Origin: Lytechinus pictus
Lineage: Eukaryota
Length of the DNA stretch: 64,000 nucleotides
Direction of reading: 5' to 3'
Assembly (NCBI RefSeq): GCF_037042905.1
Contig: NC_087251.1
Span: 35,652,001-35,716,000, forward strand
The notes under the pieces were generated by a model. That model saw only the letters and a program-made list of their open reading frames with translations. It did not search any database and was not told the DNA's origin. The position numbers and the translations under genes were made by a program. Every line of letters begins with the position of its first letter. Within the stretch, counting starts at the first letter, position 1. Below, piece by piece: positions 1,735 through 55,039 of the stretch.

Positions 1735-2087
1735 GTAATTTTATGACCGAATGTATAATTTCTGCACGTTTCACATCATGTAAAAAGGCTAAATAATAAT
1801 TGAAAAAAAAATGTTTGCTCGCTTCGAATTTGAGCAATTATTATTATTATCATTATTATTATTATTATTAAAATATTATTATTATTATCATTATCATTAT
1901 TTATTACTATTTGACAGAATTTAAAACAAATCAATTTAACTCTTCAGTTCCAATGATAAAAATATTTGTTAAAGTAACAAAAAAATTAGACACTGGATGA
2001 CCAAATAATTAACCAAATAATTGTAAATCTCGGACCCGGTTTATACCAGTGAAATCTTTGATCTTCTTCATTTTTATTTTTTAACAG

Positions 2088-5000
2088 AATATTCTCCTGT
2101 CCCATTCAAAACCCTCCCAGAGATGAGCACAGACGAGGTCAAGAAATGGCTGATTGAGGAAGTGCGTATATCTATCAGCATAGCTGATAAATTAGCAGAA
2201 GCGTGTGTAGATGGGGAGCTTTTGCTACGATATGAAGATCAGCATTTACAAAAGGATTTCCAATTGCCTACTGGAGTAATGCGAAAGATAATGTATGCTA
2301 GAGATGATCATATGAAAAAGCGTGCTCATGCACAAGCACTTCTCGCACCTGCATCAGAATGTTCCGACAACTTAAACAAAGGCGCCGGATCGACGGGGAA
2401 TGTACATAGATCTCCCTCATCAGCTGGAACACAGGAAAGTGAAAGTAATGCGCAGATCACTGAACTTACAGCATCAGTGAAGAAGTTGAATGCGCAAGAT
2501 GGCGACCTGCTGGGTAAATCAGTGGCGGTAGAAATGTCTCAACCAGCACCACTTTCCAAAGAAGAAGAATCAGCCAGAGAAGCAACGCTGCGATATCTCC
2601 TGACAGGCGATGAGAATGGATCCTTAGACAGTTCTTTCCATCCCATTCTTGTGGTAAACAAAGAATCATGTGGTGGCAAATCAGAAAGTCTCGAGGATAG
2701 GCTTGGTTTTGTTTCTTTGGTTAACTGGAATGCAGTCTTTGACTGCAATTCAAACTCTATTCAGAATGGTGTCTGTTCAATGGTAGAAAGAAAACGGGAA
2801 ATAAAGCTTCTTCTACCAGAGACATTCAATAAAGAAACGTCACCCGAAGAAGTAGATTTCAACGATGTCCCTTCCTGGATATTTGCAAATGGACGAGATG
2901 ATCTTGAAGAATTACAAAGCCCGAGTCTTGCTTCGGATTGGAATGAAAAGTATGGCGCTGGAGTTGATCGTGCAATAGATTTTTTTGCCATGAATGCAAT
3001 TCCTAAGGAAAGAGCAGTCATTGTTTTTCTTCTTCTTTCGAGAGACAGCGTGCAGGTAATGAGTGATATCTTCAAGAAATTACAGTCATCTTTGCAAGGT
3101 CATGGGACATTCACATTCATTGCAGAAAGTCGGAAGCTTTTCGAAGTTTGGGCAGATGAGGTCAAGAAGTGGTTACCACGAGATCAACTAGAGAAGAGAA
3201 GCTTCATTGGTACTTCATGGAAACGTGTCAATTGTTTCTTCCAGAAGCAGTTTGGAAAATTTGCAATTTTTCCAGCAGAATTGCCATTGTCAGATGGTAA
3301 GACATGCATTCTACCTGACAAGAAACGTTCTCAATGGCTCAACATAGATGTTCTTCCGTCAAATGAGTGTGAAAACACAGCCTTGGAGGAAGAGGGTCCA
3401 GAATTTCAAAAATTTGTTTCTGAGCAAGAGTTGGCTTTTTACCAAGGAAACCCAGTTTCTTGGTGGAACTTTCACCTAACCGAAGGTAGAGGAAAGAGAC
3501 AACAATTCAACCAAGTTTTACGACGTAAAGTCAGTAAATCATTGAATACCTTAGTGAAGTCAAAGTTGGTCCCTCCAAATCCCAATGATGGGTCGGGTTC
3601 TATCGTTACAATAACTATCTTTCATGAACCAGGGTCGGGGGCGAGCACTGCTGCAAAACAAGTCCTATGGGATTTCCATCGACAGTTCCGATGCATTATT
3701 GTTCAACGAGCAGTATTACCAACGGTTGACGAAATACTTCAAGTATGCCATTATGGGTACGAAAGTTTGGGAAAGGCTCCTCCAGTCCTTGTCTTGTTTG
3801 ATGATGCAGACGATGCAGAGGTTATCGACTTAATTGCACAACTTGAAGTAGCAACTAACAACAGAGACTCTTTGTCGATAATAATGCTTCACTGCAAAAG
3901 AACACCTGATCCTGAGCTTGAAGCAAAGGACAATGGTATGAATTCTGTTGTCATAGAGCACAAGCTTGATGACCGAGAACGAAAGTGGTTCGATGACAAA
4001 TTCAAGGAATACGATGAAGAATATAGTTTGAGCCCAGAGAAGTTGATTGGATTCATGGTAATGAAAGAAGAGTGCAACCCAGATTACATTCGAAGAATTG
4101 TATCAAACATCTTACCTGAGGTTGAAGGGAATGAAACTCGGCTGCTAAAGTACATGGCAGTTATCAACATGTTCATGGGAGATTTTGGAATGCCCGTCTC
4201 CTGCTGTGATGAATTCATGAACGTTGGAAGGAAAGTAGAAATATCTCGGGGAAGATACAAACTACAATATGTTCCATGGGAGAATCTCCTTTCACATGCG
4301 ACTTGCCTTCTCCTCGTCCCAACAAGAGTGCATACAAGATCTGGTCCTACAAAAGCAATCAAGTTAGTTAACCCTGTCCTCGCAACAGAGGTTGTTAAGC
4401 AAATTGTAGAAGACAGTGGACAGTCAATCGGGGACATCGTCAGAGAGCTGATACATCATTCCCGAATCCTTGACTCAAGGGCTTACACAAAGATGTACCT
4501 CATTGACAAAATCCGGGGGTTACTAGTACGGCGGAGGAAGATTGCAAATGACTGGAGTGAACAAAGTCAATTCTCCCCTTTGATAGAGCATATTCTCACT
4601 GAAAACCCATCGTTGGCCTTCCAACTTCTAGAAGAAACTTCCGAGTTATTCAAGAATGGACATATCGCACAACAGCTGGCGCGCTTGTACAAATGGCATG
4701 GAGACCTTGTTGAAGCTGCACGATGTGCGAAGATGGCAACTGACTTTCAGAGTGACAATCCTTACTATTGGGATACACGAGGCAGGATTGCTATAGACGT
4801 TATGAAGAGCTATAAGAAGAAGTACAACGAAACGCCTCTTGATGAATCTGATGCCTTTCAATTGATGAATCTACTACATGAGGGAATGGATGTCTTCAAG
4901 AGGTGTCAAGATCTTCTAAGGGTGGAATATAATCAGTTTTCTACATATGCTGGTTACTCCGGTGAGCTCAAAGTTATATTCCAATTCCTTCATATAATGG

Positions 5001-6292
5001 AGGAACGCGTGGTACCATTTTGTCTTTCATCAAGACATTGTGTACAACAGCTGAAGGTATACTTCTTGACTGACGAAGAGCTTCAAGGACTCAGTGAGTT
5101 CTGGAAACAACACAGACATAATCTCAAGGAATTGCCAAAGAGAGCTGATCTCACGCTTCATAGCATTGAGGATCTCATGACATTCAGCAAAAGTATAACA
5201 AGGACCAAGCAAAATCCTGAAGACGAACTGCGCATGAGGAAAACTGAGAAGAACAAGTTCTATCTGGATATGCTTAGATACTTCACAGTAGACATAGAGC
5301 AGTCTCCACCCAAGTCTGTCCAGGTAAATCCTGTATCAATGAATGAATGGAGAAGAGCACAAGTGAGAACATTGAACGCCGATTCGTTCTTTTCAATATT
5401 CAAACTGGCACAGCATGGTCAGGTAGATCCTCTGAAGAAAGTTCAAGGTATTCTCAACGCAAATCATCCCAAAAATTCATTTGATCTAAAAATTTTGGTT
5501 TGTCTTTCGTTCGCCTTGTCCTCATTAGATCACGAAGAGGTTGACTACAATGGGATAATCAGACAAGTGCAGAATCTGAATGAAATCGACCATAGCTTGT
5601 ATGGTGCTTTCTTCGCTCTGATGTTAGCCTGGCCAAGAGATGACCCAAATGCCAGAAGTAGCGATGTTGGGATGACCACGCTGAAAGCGATTGTGATTCT
5701 AAGAGAGAAATGGGACAACTTGCTTAGAATGAATTCAGAGAAACAATCATCTCAGACGAGGTATGATAAATCACTTCCGCGTTCCAATATAATAGTGAGA
5801 AAACCGCTCACACAGTTTCTACTGGCTCAGGGAGAAGGTTTGCGGGCATTCGTTCACATCAACATGTTCAACGCAACACAGTCTACACTGGAAGGTGAAA
5901 AGCACAGATTCTGGTCAAGAGAAGAAGTGAAAGAGCGAATGTTGCGCTTAGAGGGGACCATTCAAGATAGAGAGAGGATCGTTTACATAACCCCAGCAAA
6001 AGAAATTATCTACATCAGGCTATCTGCGAGATGGCACTGTCAACCAAGTCAAGAGAAAGTCTCCTTTTACCTTGGCTTCAATTTCCTTGGACCGGTAGCA
6101 TACGATGTGTGCGAAAAGGATCGCAAGCCAGTCCCAATTCTTGTGAAAACTCACCATCAGACATATCCTGGATATCTTTTGGGCAGACTTAGCAACCTCG
6201 AAAGGAGAAAAGAGGGCATTCAAACTACATTGGATGAAATAGAGTACTTGTCCAAGAAACGAAGAAACAGGCAAAAACTCACAGTTGATGAT
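2088..6292 (+). CDS. SAMD9-like: SAMD9/SAMD9L-like STAND NTPase, main exon (SAM, SIR2-like, P-loop NTPase, TPR-like, OB fold)
   Basis: N-terminal SAM-type signature (DEVKKWL...VDGELLL...LPTGVMRKI). SAMD9 motifs LLTGDENGSLDSSFHPILVVNK and WNAVFD, FYQGNPVSWWNF, Walker A variant HEPGSGAST..QVLWDF (3623-), Walker B VLVLFDD (3785-), and C-terminal EKVSFYLGFNFLGPVAYDV. Polypyrimidine acceptor at 2087; donor GAT|GTAAGT at 6293. Confidence 0.93.
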
Positions 6293-6911
6293 GTAAGTTC
6301 AATTCTTCCATTAAAATTCTGCAAATTAATTCATCAGATACAAACCTCAACTTAAGTCCTTACCCTACTTCTTATACTTACCCAATACAATATCACAATA
6401 ACAATTATCCCTATGCATTCAGAAAAATAGAGGCAGGGTCAATTGCCACGGGAGCGAAGGTTAAAAAATGAAGTCTGCCTATATTTTCTTTGTGGGGGTA
6501 TTTCGTTTCAGGTAACGAGTATCTTTATACAGAACACAGAGAATTGATAAAATGAGAAAGCCAGGAATTTGAACAATTGCCGACCCGTAAATATCAGATC
6601 ACGATCTTATAATGATTTTTTTTTATTTAATAGTAAAGTATGTGATATGGTAGTGATAATGATAACAATGACAACAATGCCATTATTGATAATGATTTGA
6701 ATGACAGCAATGATAATAATAATAAAGGTATTGAAAATATTGATGAGTGGAGAGCTACGGACTTGCCTGTTTTGAAGAAAAAAGCTACCCATCGCTTTTC
6801 TTTTCTCGCTCTTCTATAATTCAGTGCTTTAACTCTCCTTTATGTCAATTTCGAAAACACTCCCTGTGAATCCTGATTTTTTTTCCATTTGTTTTGGGAT
6901 TTTATTTACAG

Positions 6912-7070
6912 CTGACATTAATTCGGACCAAACCTAAGCTGGATGCAGAACTCCTGGACATTGAGGCGCAGATTCAAGATGAGCTCGACAAAAACGACGA
7001 CGAAGACGAAACATTTACTCTCGTAACAAAGCGGAAGAGGGGATACAAGGTGATGAGTATTGAGTCATAA
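6912..7070 (+). CDS. SAMD9-like: SAMD9-like gene, terminal coding exon (LTLIRTKPKLDAELLDIEAQIQDELDKNDDEDETFTLVTKRKRGYKVMSIES*)
   Basis: Acceptor TTTATTTACAG at 6901-6911; phase 0 matches the donor at 6293; 52 codons then TAA at 7068-7070; coding-like composition inside AT-rich DNA. Confidence 0.75.
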   Translation: MTLIRTKPKLDAELLDIEAQIQDELDKNDDEDETFTLVTKRKRGYKVMSIES

Positions 7071-7204
7071 AAAGAGCATGTATCTCTGTCACATAGTGCA
7101 ATAGAAGAATGTCCAACAGACGAGTAGAAGATTGTGATCCCGTTACATAAACCTAGTATTCGATAACAATTTCAAAATTACTGCGACAAATTTATCAGAC
7201 GATC

Positions 7205-7425
7205 CATAATATGTTGATTTTGTGCAGATCCTAACAGCTTTCTTTTGTAGTAAAAGTAAATGGTCGAAGTTGGTTTTACTACAGTTTCCCCAGATAAAGT
7301 TACAATAATTGATATATGGTTTATCATGAGAAGGGAATGCTCTGGCAAAAAAAATATTTCAATTTGTATAATATTCCAATTCCTTTAGCCATTGATGAGG
7401 ATATATTGCTTACGTGTTGGCTCCA
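7205..7425 (-). mobile_element. Relic of a CR1/L2-type LINE reverse-transcriptase C-terminal region
   Basis: Minus-strand translation gives WSQHVSNISSSMAKGIGILYKLKYF, then PYINYCNFIWGNCSKTNFDHLLLLQKKAVRICTK, the typical post-RT motifs of CR1/L2-group ORF2. Disrupted and truncated. Confidence 0.75.
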
Positions 7426-52382: not shown

Positions 52383-53670
52383 ATTTTTTTTTTTTATAAA
52401 GCTTTTTTTTATTTCCCTCCGATAGGGCATATATTTGCATAAACATTTTAACAATGATATAAATGAAATAACATATCATACACACATAGCATAATTTTGT
52501 ACAAAGTATAGGCCTACAGGGCATTTCAAGCAAAAGGCAACCGATACTAGAGTGGCCATGTCCTACACCCATCCGTTCCGCCGCCGACACTTGCAGCAGC
52601 AAAGAACAAATGAGCACCGAACAAGGCCACTCCAACAATAATTGATCACCTCTCACCCGAAACACACTGCACATTCATCATGAAAATATGTTTACATTAA
52701 ACAGAAATACATATAAAGGTCCGGAAATCTTATTACAAAATGACAAGAATTCTTTCGAAATTTACCCATTTTTTATCAAATTTATGTGTTTTGTTTTCCA
52801 TAATACTGATTTGCCTCTCATTTTTGTAACATTTTCTTATATATTGTTTAATTTTCTCAAAATTAGGTATGGTTTTTTCCACACGAGCAGAGTATACTTG
52901 TTGTTTCGTCCAAATTATTAAACAATTTAAAGCATCGTTTCTTTTTTCTGTGAAACCAAACAAAACATGTACAGCAGAAAGATTTATTCTAAATCTTGTT
53001 AAACTGTATAACCAGTCTGTAAATCGTACCCAGATAAGATTTACCACATGACATTGATGAAAAAAATGTATAGCGTTTTCTTCTTCCCTTCCACAAAAAG
53101 AGCATTTTGCATCTGCAGTTATTTTCATCTTTACAAGATCCTTATTCAAATATACTATCTTATTTAGCAGTCGGTACTGAAAGTACCTCATTGTAGTATA
53201 AGTTGTACATCGAAACATCGTTTTAAAATAATTTTTCATATCTCTGGTGTCCATCGAAATGCCATTGACAAACCATCTATTACACAATTTAGTCAAGTTA
53301 TCATCATTTTCTTTTAACATGATATAATATACATGTCTACATCCTTTTTTGTCCTTCAGTAAATGAAAGATATAAGCAGGGCATAATGGTTCATTAGATT
53401 TCATATTACACGTATTCAACTGAGCTTTATACTTACATTTAATAATCTGACATAAGACATAATAATGAAGAAACTGAATTTTGATTGAAAATCTTTTTTC
53501 ACACTCATCTCTTTCCAGAAGTTTTCCATTCTCATCTAATAAATCGTTAATAAATCTAATGCCTTTGTCCCACCATTCCTTTAAGAATATACCTTTTCCA
53601 CCAATTTTTACATCAGAATTGTACCATAAAGGAATAGCCGGCCAAAAAAGAGAAGTACACTGAACATTTC
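52383..53670 (-). mobile_element. 5'-truncated L1/Tx1-type LINE (ORF2 C-terminus with zf-RVT; ORF 52733-53670 still open) nested in the foldback element
   Basis: PLWYNS.V...W..KGI..I.DL, FQYRLLNKIV, CSFCGREEENAIHFFHQC..V..IW; poly-T (poly-A tail) at 52383-52413. Confidence 0.88.
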
Positions 53671-55039
53671 GAATAAAGGAGGAAACTATAATAAAAAATT
53701 TCCTTCCAAACTTGGTTATTATTTGAAAAAAATAAAATAGTTTAAAAAATATTCTAAAACGAATACCCAATAATCTAATTACTGTGGAATAACATGAAGA
53801 TCGATTGTAGACTTTCCTCCAGACACAGTTATTTCAAGAATAAAAAGCAATAAATCCCAACCCCCAACAACGAATGTAAAAACCAACAATCCGCCAAATT
53901 AAGACCATGTAGAAAATCACATGTTTAGAGCGTTGTCTTACCTGACCCAGTCATTTAAAAAATAATCTAAACAATCTTAAAAACATAAGACTTTGTCATA
54001 TTCTTATTCCTGTGGAATAACACGAGTATTATGCTTATTATTTTGTCTATACCCGGTTATTTAAAAGATTTAAAAAAAAATCTTCATAATTATAAATATG
54101 AAGATTGGTCTTGGCTTAGATTTTTTTTCAATATTATTATAAACACAGTTAAAATGTTTGGGTTTATAGTGTTGTCTTTACCCCACACCCAGTTCTCTTA
54201 AAAATACAAATTAAGCGAAACATTAATTTTAAAACTTAGACCCCTGCATCTTCCAAACTATAAAAACCCTGTGATAACGCATACCACAAAAACGACAAGT
54301 TAATCATAGGCGTAAATATTCATATCTGAATGATACGCGCCTTTAAACCCAAAATAACAACAACGTTATTCTACATCAATGATATTGTGGGGTCTCTGTT
54401 AATATTGTTTGTTTGTTTTTATTGTTTCTTATAATTCCCTATTTTGAAATAACTGGAGCAAAGACTACACCATATTTCCATGCTATTCAATGTTGATAAC
54501 ATTACAGGGTCTTTGTTTTGTTGTTGTGTTTTTAATGATTTTTATAACTGGGTCTGGATGAAAGACTACGCTATATTTCCATGTTATTCAACATAAATAG
54601 GATCGTGGGTCTTTTTTGTTTTTAATTATTATTAATTTATTACTATTATTCATCATTTGTTATTTGAAAGATCTGGGTCTGGAGGGAAGACTACGCTATA
54701 TTTCCATGTTATTCAACATCAATAAGATTGTGGGGCCTTTGTTTTATTATTATTATATATCTTTTTTATGATTTGTTATTTAAAAATAACTGGGTCTCGA
54801 AGAAAGACTACGCTATATTTTCAAGTTATTCAACATCAATGAGATTGTAGGGTCTTTTTAAATATTGTTCTTTATGATTTGCTATTTTGAAATAACCGGG
54901 GTTGGAACAAAGACTACACCATATTTCGATGCTGATTCCCATATTTCGCTGATCCCTGTGTTTTCCATTAATTTTTCCCGTTTTTGCTCTTTGCTATTTT
55001 TCCAGGTTCTTTAAATTTGTGATTTATCAGGGAGGATTC

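Follow-up and report, generated by a model that had tools for sequence, protein, structure and literature searches.

SAMD9 and SAMD9L are medically important antiviral STAND proteins, whose C-terminal OB-fold end was recently shown to take part in the switch between autoinhibition and activation, as set out in the accessible portion of that report (PMC13600222). According to the same portion, the OB barrel of human SAMD9 is anchored on TPR2, and a loop of the barrel touches the nucleotide-binding domain (NBD) while the protein is closed and a SIR2 domain in asymmetric dimers, which the authors interpret as intermediates of activation. Deletion of the OB region stops oligomerization of the human protein, as stated in the available part of a second study (PMC12015307). 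[quoted passage not shown] (PMC5445408). A different kind of C-terminal module is known from the PYM proteins: human PYM has an eIF2A-like C-terminus that associates with the ribosome's 40S subunit, and the PYM of Drosophila, whose C-terminus has diverged, shows no ribosome binding, both as given in the accessible part of PMC4072592. Here we describe a SAMD9-like gene in a 64,000-nucleotide stretch of the genome of the sea urchin Lytechinus pictus (NCBI RefSeq assembly GCF_037042905.1, contig NC_087251.1, positions 35,652,001 to 35,716,000 of the forward strand; henceforth the window, with positions counted from its first letter). The protein ends in a C-terminal tail of 113 residues, which is a real, expressed, and selectively maintained appendage of a SAMD9-family STAND NTPase lacking the tRNase/AlbA domain. 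In our reading, the tail is specific to echinoids and probably serves for docking or regulation where it sits, at the sensor/switch end.

The gene belongs to the SAMD9 family. Its open frame occupies 2027..6355 on the plus strand (1442 codons stop to stop), and the spliced product is identical to the 1539-aa database protein P0003, recorded as [quoted passage not shown] One large coding exon (2088..6292, plus strand), preceded by an acceptor (..ttttaacAG) that ends at 2087, encodes the putative SAM domain and the SIR2-like, STAND NTPase, TPR, and OB regions together with the first 61 residues past the motif GPVAYDV. Its translation agrees with P0003, the first 86 residues of which are encoded 5' of 2088, apparently beyond the window. 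Residues 231-1426 of P0003 are co-linear with residues 235-1447 of the 1450-residue human SAMD9 chain (E 2e-73), leaving the 113 residues unmatched, and the hallmark succession of SIR2-like, NOD (P-loop NTPase), TPR, and C-terminal OB-fold regions is thereby present. At the level of structure, Foldseek matched seven human SAMD9 chains at E<=1e-3 to a model covering the C-terminal 327 residues of the homologue from L. variegatus, with the barrel-plus-TPR part giving the best value (E 6e-10 over ~222 of the 327 residues). A putative SAM domain is indicated by a match of P0003 87-163 to the SAM chain of SARM1 (E 0.0023), and Pfam gave no SAM match.

Upstream of this conserved core the urchin protein departs from its human counterpart. 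No AlbA_2/tRNase domain was found by Pfam even at E<=10, residues 1-234 of the human chain have no partner in P0003, and the SAM match is separated by just 67 residues from the point where the alignment to human SAMD9 begins. Thus, the tRNase/AlbA domain is absent from P0003, as an initial reading of the DNA made without database searches (the sequence-only reading) had claimed. This absence does not exclude the protein from the family, since the loss of AlbA_2 in family members is on record (PMC5445408, in the text consulted). The same reading went on to call the protein effector-less, which goes further than the AlbA loss supports: the stretch that aligns with the human SIR2-like domain is retained, and an N-terminal module is present in longer relatives. 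In two of these relatives (P0026, residues 1-213, and P0027, residues 1-255) the module, conserved as ..SIHFFV....LLVTPELEEAAG.., precedes the SAM domain; its nearest Atlas clusters are TRADD-like_N at a score of 0.80, which we treat as a lead only, and Pfam finds nothing there.

At the opposite end, human SAMD9 chains can be aligned with a profile of urchin C-termini as far as ...FYLGFSIGGPLAYDI. In three human constructs the motif ends at residue 964 of 967, 1447 of 1450, and 1431 of 1434. Human SAMD9 thus stops three residues past the motif, and the 113 residues that follow GPVAYDV in P0003 are extra, in agreement with the sequence-only reading, which had placed the tail beyond the point where vertebrate SAMD9 essentially ends. 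Completion of this tail depends on a splice. The large exon ends at 6292 with GAT GAT followed by a GTAAGT donor, and a pyrimidine-rich tract with ..tttacAG stands directly 5' of the CTG at 6912, both exon ends falling at codon boundaries. The intervening phase 0 intron of 619 nt (6293..6911, plus strand, GT..AG) leads to a second exon encoding the 52 residues LTLIRTKPKLDAELLDIEAQIQDELDKNDDEDETFTLVTKRKRGYKVMSIES and closed by the TAA stop codon of the spliced frame at 7068..7070 on the plus strand.

Contigs from 4 of the 16 listed sequencing runs, representing four studies and two organisms, were inspected for this junction. In all four, one contig per run joins 6292 to 6912 with the 619 nt skipped at GT..AG. 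The contig from run X1 shows zero letter differences over 5600-7238, the latter being the point to which it extends beyond the stop codon; the three runs from the second organism differ at ~3% of positions and use the identical joint. The label of these runs as RNA is a guess, and the splice evidence rests solely on the contigs skipping the intron at GT..AG; DNA contigs would not skip an intron at the exact splice sites, and the 6292/6912 splice is therefore real. No contig over the intron was seen in the runs examined, which is no argument against intron retention. The NCBI gene model P0003 carries exactly the same spliced tail. The splice predicted from the letters alone is thereby confirmed by both the transcripts and the database model, rather than translation ending at the TAA at 6355, and because the NCBI model already includes the tail, it was not hidden from annotation.

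The anatomy of the tail was examined with two AlphaFold2 models: one of the tail itself, based on a six-row tail alignment, and one of the tail in context, covering the final 327 residues of the homologue from L. variegatus on a 15-row alignment. Tail residues are numbered from the Y of YDV as 1. The motif GPVAYDV (6089..6109, plus strand; human equivalent GPLAYDI) lies in the last strand of the OB barrel, modeled as strand 205-213 in the L. variegatus protein. It is followed by a linker of ~22 aa, CEKDRKPVPILVKTHHQTYP (6110..6169, plus strand), with a predicted local distance difference test (pLDDT) value below 50 in both models. Helix 1 of the hairpin (tail residues 24-55; 6170..6265, plus strand) corresponds to residues 239-265 of the homologue in context. 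The tip, KKRRNRQKLT (6254..6283, plus strand; model loop residues 56-61), is the most conserved element of the tail, with the consensus [KR]KRRNRQxLT: residues K52, K53, R54, R55, N56, R57, Q58, L60, and T61 are invariant in the tail alignment A2, and the Diadema version reads RKRRNRQQLT. Helix 2 (tail residues 62-96, modeled as 62-69 and 71-96) starts with VDD at 6284-6292 and continues in the second exon at 6912..7007 on the plus strand; its counterparts in the context model are residues 272-279 and 281-304.

Beyond the hairpin, an acidic run followed by F-x-L-V (NDDEDETFTLV; 6993..7025, plus strand) has D93, D94, D96, E97, F99, L101, and V102 invariant in A2; elsewhere it appears as DDDGFMLV in Diadema and as DDDDGLFFLV and DDDDDAFILV in the fragments P0010 and P0012. 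The first residues of the run lie at the end of modeled helix 2, and pLDDT falls below 50 from residue 96 in the tail model and from residue 304 in the context model. A basic cluster, KRKRG (7029..7043, plus strand), stands near the C-terminus, with R105 and G108 invariant in A2 and RRRG, RRG, or KRKRG in other tails. In the tail model, 10-residue blocks from 31 to 80 have mean pLDDT values of 87-93, and residues 1-7, 14-23, and 96-116 fall below 50. The context model agrees in layout: five strands ending in the GPVAHDV strand, 21 residues with pLDDT below 50, the helix-loop-helix (239-265 and 272-304), and a low-confidence end. As modeled, then, the tail consists of a ~22-aa low-confidence linker, a ~70-aa antiparallel helix-loop-helix, and a disordered end of ~20 aa, and the helical hairpin first proposed by eye is recovered in both predictions.

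A profile built from three tails retrieved six proteins at E<=1e-3 from 1,835,955,588 representative proteins. These include a SAMD9-like protein of 1445 aa from Diadema antillarum that bears the full tail, and four short fragments of such tails, among them P0008 and P0009, which read past the end point of the window exon. The sixth, a repeat protein with 17 matched stretches, was taken as a false positive. Among 15 SAMD9-like proteins compared, six bear a tail of 113-116 aa past the motif (two from L. pictus, one each from L. variegatus and S. purpuratus, and two from D. antillarum), so that Lytechinus, Strongylocentrotus, and Diadema all retain the tail. Its conservation in homologues, on which the sequence-only reading had made its proposal depend, thus spans three echinoid genera, and so far the tail has been found, by sequence comparison, in sea urchins only. 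Six further echinoid proteins, which we call group B, extend 34-38 residues past the motif, and a seventh with a variant motif has a similarly short end; the remainder comprise P0006, with 34 residues, and a SAM-plus-Pyrin protein, with 4. The latter (P0035, 1522 aa) is a distant SAMD9-like protein with SAM and Pyrin/PAAD domains on record that ends 4 residues past GPLAYDI. Two SAMD9-like loci elsewhere in the L. pictus assembly, L017 and L018 (contig C4, ~27.60 and 27.63 Mb, on opposite strands ~36 kb apart, with frames of 1523 and 1495 codons), belong to the short-tailed group B and end 38 residues past GPLAYDV. Group B shares the pattern ..P....K.....YP.Y with the start of the tail and hence with part of its linker; therefore, the part specific to the tailed proteins is the hairpin onward, from about tail residue 25.

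Evidence of selective maintenance comes from the comparison with the transcripts of the second organism, a sister species. In the tail, six of the eight differences are synonymous, against an expectation of 21.5% (binomial p=0.0019); for the 510 bases 5' of it, the figure is 7 of 15. Both the splice sites and the reading frame are conserved in those transcripts. The tail has been lost in the P0006 gene, a tandem paralog ~145 kb downstream (contig C7; L016:1790-2540, the same DNA as L002). Its core frame is open over 1390 codons, and the tail DNA is still recognizable with both splice sites kept, but the tail itself is broken by insertions of 1 nt and 12 nt, deletions of 56 nt (most of helix 1), 5 nt, and 14 nt, and a CAA->TAG change. 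The loss of the tail with retention of the core frame indicates that the tail is a separable module. The gene of one further protein, P0005, was not found in this assembly with P0002 and P0010 as queries, and the counts are lower bounds.

The most specific proposal of the sequence-only reading was that the tail resembles the C-terminal helical hairpin of PYM1 and eIF2A. As a reference we used the PYM gene of L. pictus from the same genome (a Mago-bind exon and a C-terminal exon) and 13 PYM proteins with the hairpin. The C-terminal exon of the urchin PYM lies at L008:8742-9272 on the minus strand and the last exon of eIF2A at L012:7519-7644 on the plus strand; the two bear a common hairpin (..KLKAIEKLKEQQASGKELEKNQLDKL.. 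in eIF2A), a likeness that a small hidden Markov model (HMM) detects at 23 bits. With the HMM of the PYM hairpin, all 13 PYMs score 88-98 bits, and the positive control, the last exon of L. pictus eIF2A (KLKAIEKLKEQQASGKELEKNQLDKLSTEDELRRELAKLE), scores 23.3 bits (E 1.2e-5 among 5523 six-frame open reading frames). The spliced SAMD9-like proteins score from -5.3 to 0.0 bits, and whole-protein reversed decoys reach up to 2.6. The second exon of the tail by itself gave 4.2 bits (E 11) in an alignment that includes an intron-encoded residue, and the open reading frame with the exon-1 part of the tail had no match to this HMM at E<=100. As a single query in its own genome, the PYM hairpin found itself only. 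The tail profile retrieved no PYM, eIF2A, or caprin at E<=1e-3 from the 1.84 billion proteins, and no caprin sequence was compared directly.

A weaker signal does emerge when profiles are aligned directly. By hhalign, the tail scored 24.8 against the PYM hairpin together with the urchin eIF2A exon (P 4.2e-4, probability 34%), which is sub-threshold, in a hairpin-only alignment of 54 columns that spans the whole hairpin with one 2-residue gap at 22% identity. Reversed controls gave 18.7 and 17.4, and one of 100 heptad-block shuffles reached the real score. Among 50 windows across the SAMD9-like alignment, the 47 not reaching the hairpin scored at most 15.5 and the three overlapping it 21.9-25.6. 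Against full-length PYM the score was 21.7 (probability 4%), with reversed controls at 23.1 and 22.1 and 198 of 200 column shuffles lower. The choice of comparison was made with the likeness already in view, and charged coiled coils are a known source of false positives. Of the 15 columns invariant in PYM hairpins (L. pictus PYM numbering: K137, K143-145, I149, L152, S158-G159-E160, E167, Q168, K171, E181, L185, and E186), the hhalign register shows 4 to be identical in the tail (I, L, E, and E), three to be conservatively replaced, and eight to differ; the tail lacks the KKK patch, the SGE turn, Q168, and K171. The AlphaFold2 models do display a helix-turn-helix fold as in the PYM/eIF2A hairpin, a feature that is generic.

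Because the family HMM scores the tails at 0 bits or less, 4 of 15 invariant columns are retained, the profile search found no such proteins, and the fold matches are generic, the tail cannot, on sequence grounds, be shown to belong to the PYM/eIF2A hairpin family. What they have in common is a charged heptad pattern, a likeness that appears to be real but sub-threshold and such as may be found between two charged amphipathic hairpins whose arms are similar in length; the hairpin of the tail may be very distantly related to that of PYM/eIF2A or have converged on it. Thus, of the pattern first drawn by eye, the register survives, being reproduced by hhalign above its controls, while the family HMM, the invariant columns, and the library search fail to uphold membership.

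Other searches with the tail returned little of a specific nature. The best PDB sequence match was interleukin-6 at E 0.77, which we dismissed as noise, and a search of the ESM Atlas gave no usable match. Pfam applied to the two exon pieces (E<=1) and to six tails (E<=10) gave scattered weak coiled-coil matches only, the most frequent being CCDC-167, in three of the six tails with a best E of 0.14. Foldseek with the tail model found no match at E<=0.001. A wide VIA search with the same model gave Z scores up to 9.2 among 48,161 chains, a range common for helical models according to the tool; the VIA matches listed included no chain of PYM, eIF2A, or caprin, which proves nothing. Prediction of a two-copy tail complex scored 0.00 and gave no answer, speaking neither for nor against self-association.

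The position of the tail informs our reading of its role. In human SAMD9 the OB domain contacts the NBD and SIR2, and a tail mounted on it is therefore read as an added docking or regulatory surface. Joined to the last OB strand through a presumably flexible linker, the hairpin would add a binding surface at the switch, where the invariant basic tip, the KRKRG cluster, or both may engage either a polyanion (RNA) or another protein as partner. As for the acidic-FxLV end, it might serve as a short linear docking motif. Its pattern, DD(E/D)..F.LV, is conserved and lies mostly in the region with pLDDT below 50, and it would fit the LC3-interacting region (LIR) or SUMO-interacting motif (SIM) type of pattern, with an acidic run, an aromatic/hydrophobic x-x-[LIV] core, and a disordered segment. 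Together, the tip and the FxLV end could tune opening, oligomerization/assembly, or recruitment in a protein without tRNase output.

Several points weigh against this reading of the tail as an echinoid-specific docking or regulatory appendage. The mechanism is inferred from the anatomy of the tail, and the flexibility of the linker and the disorder of the end rest on low pLDDT alone. The loss of the tail in the tandem paralog could mean that it contributes little. The tail profile is thin (effective number of sequences, Neff, 1.9), and non-echinoid classes of echinoderms may be poorly sampled, so that the restriction to echinoids is a lower bound on the range. Finally, the sub-threshold hhalign similarity (P 4e-4) leaves room for remote homology to PYM/eIF2A or for convergence.

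A rival idea, inherited from the sequence-only reading, is that a hairpin of PYM1/eIF2A type, by homology or convergence, lets the AlbA-less SAMD9 dock on the small ribosomal subunit or RNA and so gives it a route to translation besides tRNA cleavage. The hairpin-only hhalign score (24.8, P 4.2e-4) exceeds the reversed controls, 99 of 100 shuffles, and the windows elsewhere in the protein, a helical hairpin is the fold in both models, and in human PYM the eIF2A-like C-terminus does associate with 40S (accessible part of PMC4072592). Yet the comparison was post hoc and of a kind prone to false positives from charged coiled coils; the PYM-hairpin HMM gives the tails 0 bits or less against 23.3 for the eIF2A exon; the library search is devoid of PYM, eIF2A, and caprin; 4 of 15 invariant columns are kept; and full-length hhalign does not rise above reversed controls. 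Moreover, the PYM of Drosophila fails to bind ribosomes (same part of PMC4072592). We therefore consider ribosome docking through such a hairpin highly improbable. An elaboration of it, in which echinoids replaced the tRNase output of SAMD9 altogether, the AlbA-less STAND protein docking on RNA or the small ribosomal subunit via its arginine-tipped hairpin and recruiting a downstream factor through the FxLV end, strikes us as a comparably long shot.

The basic clusters admit another interpretation, namely that KKRRNR and KRKRG are nuclear localization signals and that the tail mainly sends the SAMD9-like protein to the nucleus or nucleolus. Both clusters are conserved and would fit the classical K-K/R-x-K/R pattern, and the second lies in a low-confidence segment; on the other side, the invariance of the whole [KR]KRRNRQxLT element and the surrounding hairpin exceeds what such a signal needs, and the first cluster is located where a confidently predicted helix ends. 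A targeting role for the tail is accordingly unlikely, if less so than the ribosomal proposals. The hairpin might alternatively be a coiled-coil element of self-association that aids STAND oligomerization: it is amphipathic, its nearest folds include the oligomerizing ESCRT-III, prefoldin, and designed bundles (VIA Z 8-9, common for helical models), and oligomerization of human SAMD9 needs the OB end (available part of PMC12015307). These fold matches are generic, with nothing specific among them, and the most conserved element is the basic tip rather than a hydrophobic seam, which makes self-association quite unlikely as the main role. The tail could, lastly, be a neutral, functionless extension arisen from a lost stop codon and a captured exon, as its lineage-restricted distribution, its lack of relatives in other protein families, and its loss in one paralog might suggest. 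But it is retained, invariant motifs included, from Diadema through to Lytechinus, six of eight substitutions are synonymous (p=0.0019), and its splice sites and frame persist in the transcripts of the second organism; because of this conservation and synonymous excess, a neutral origin without function is disfavored and in our estimate very improbable.

What is new here should be set apart from what is already known, which includes the gene family, the loss of AlbA, and the presence of the tail in NCBI gene models. No description of the tail was found in the literature on SAMD9 combined with sea urchins or echinoderms, and the main texts of the consulted papers on SAMD9 evolution, including PMC5445408, are without sea urchins or echinoderms, although their figures and supplements may show echinoderm architectures. 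A lineage without the tRNase domain and with a conserved, separable hairpin on the OB end represents a natural variant of a switch of medical importance, through which one may ask what couplings are possible for the sensor end and how STAND proteins acquire new outputs. The tandem paralog that lacks the tail alone provides a ready-made comparison. Were docking on the translation apparatus true, the protein would be a translation-linked innate-immune sensor or effector that acts without tRNA cleavage, a case of high interest; a new ribosome-docking route is at present unsupported, and thus the immediate value of the finding is modest.

Two further features of the window concern mobile or repeated sequences. 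Just 3' of the 3' untranslated region of the gene, at 7209-7297, contigs reach a depth of up to 346, against ~10 for the gene, on both strands, and extend into unlike sequence, which looks like a repeated, expressed element. At 52733-53833 on the minus strand, a 366-codon open frame matches zf-RVT, the zinc-binding region of reverse transcriptases (E 2e-9), and is a retroelement fragment.

Comparison with described systems places the tail among several that it resembles in part. Like it, the PYM1/eIF2A C-terminal hairpin is a charged, C-terminal helix-turn-helix of ~55 residues with ..IE.L.. and ..L..EL..E in the same register; in contrast, the NLKKK patch and the SGE turn are absent from the tail, which has its basic cluster at the hairpin tip instead and bears an extra C-terminal acidic-FxLV-basic segment. 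Generic antiparallel hairpins, such as the seryl-tRNA synthetase arm, ESCRT-III/CHMP4B, prefoldin, and MacA, have the same fold (Foldseek TM 0.3-0.5; VIA Z 8-9 over 70-86 residues) and no sequence relation to the tail. The group B paralogs of echinoids (P0028-P0034, and L017 and L018) possess the same core, with ~30-34% identity to the C-terminal part of the window protein, and the first ~25 residues past the OB motif as in the tail, but end with an acidic ..DDIDE..YDF and without the hairpin. The closest described proteins remain human SAMD9 and SAMD9L (cryo-electron microscopy entries 9zjr, 9zjs, 9zjv, and others), which have the motif FYLGF..GP.AYD in common with the urchin protein. The latter differs from them in being without the tRNase/AlbA_2 domain, in carrying 113 C-terminal residues where the human protein has 3, and in having relatives that bear an extra N-terminal module before the SAM domain.

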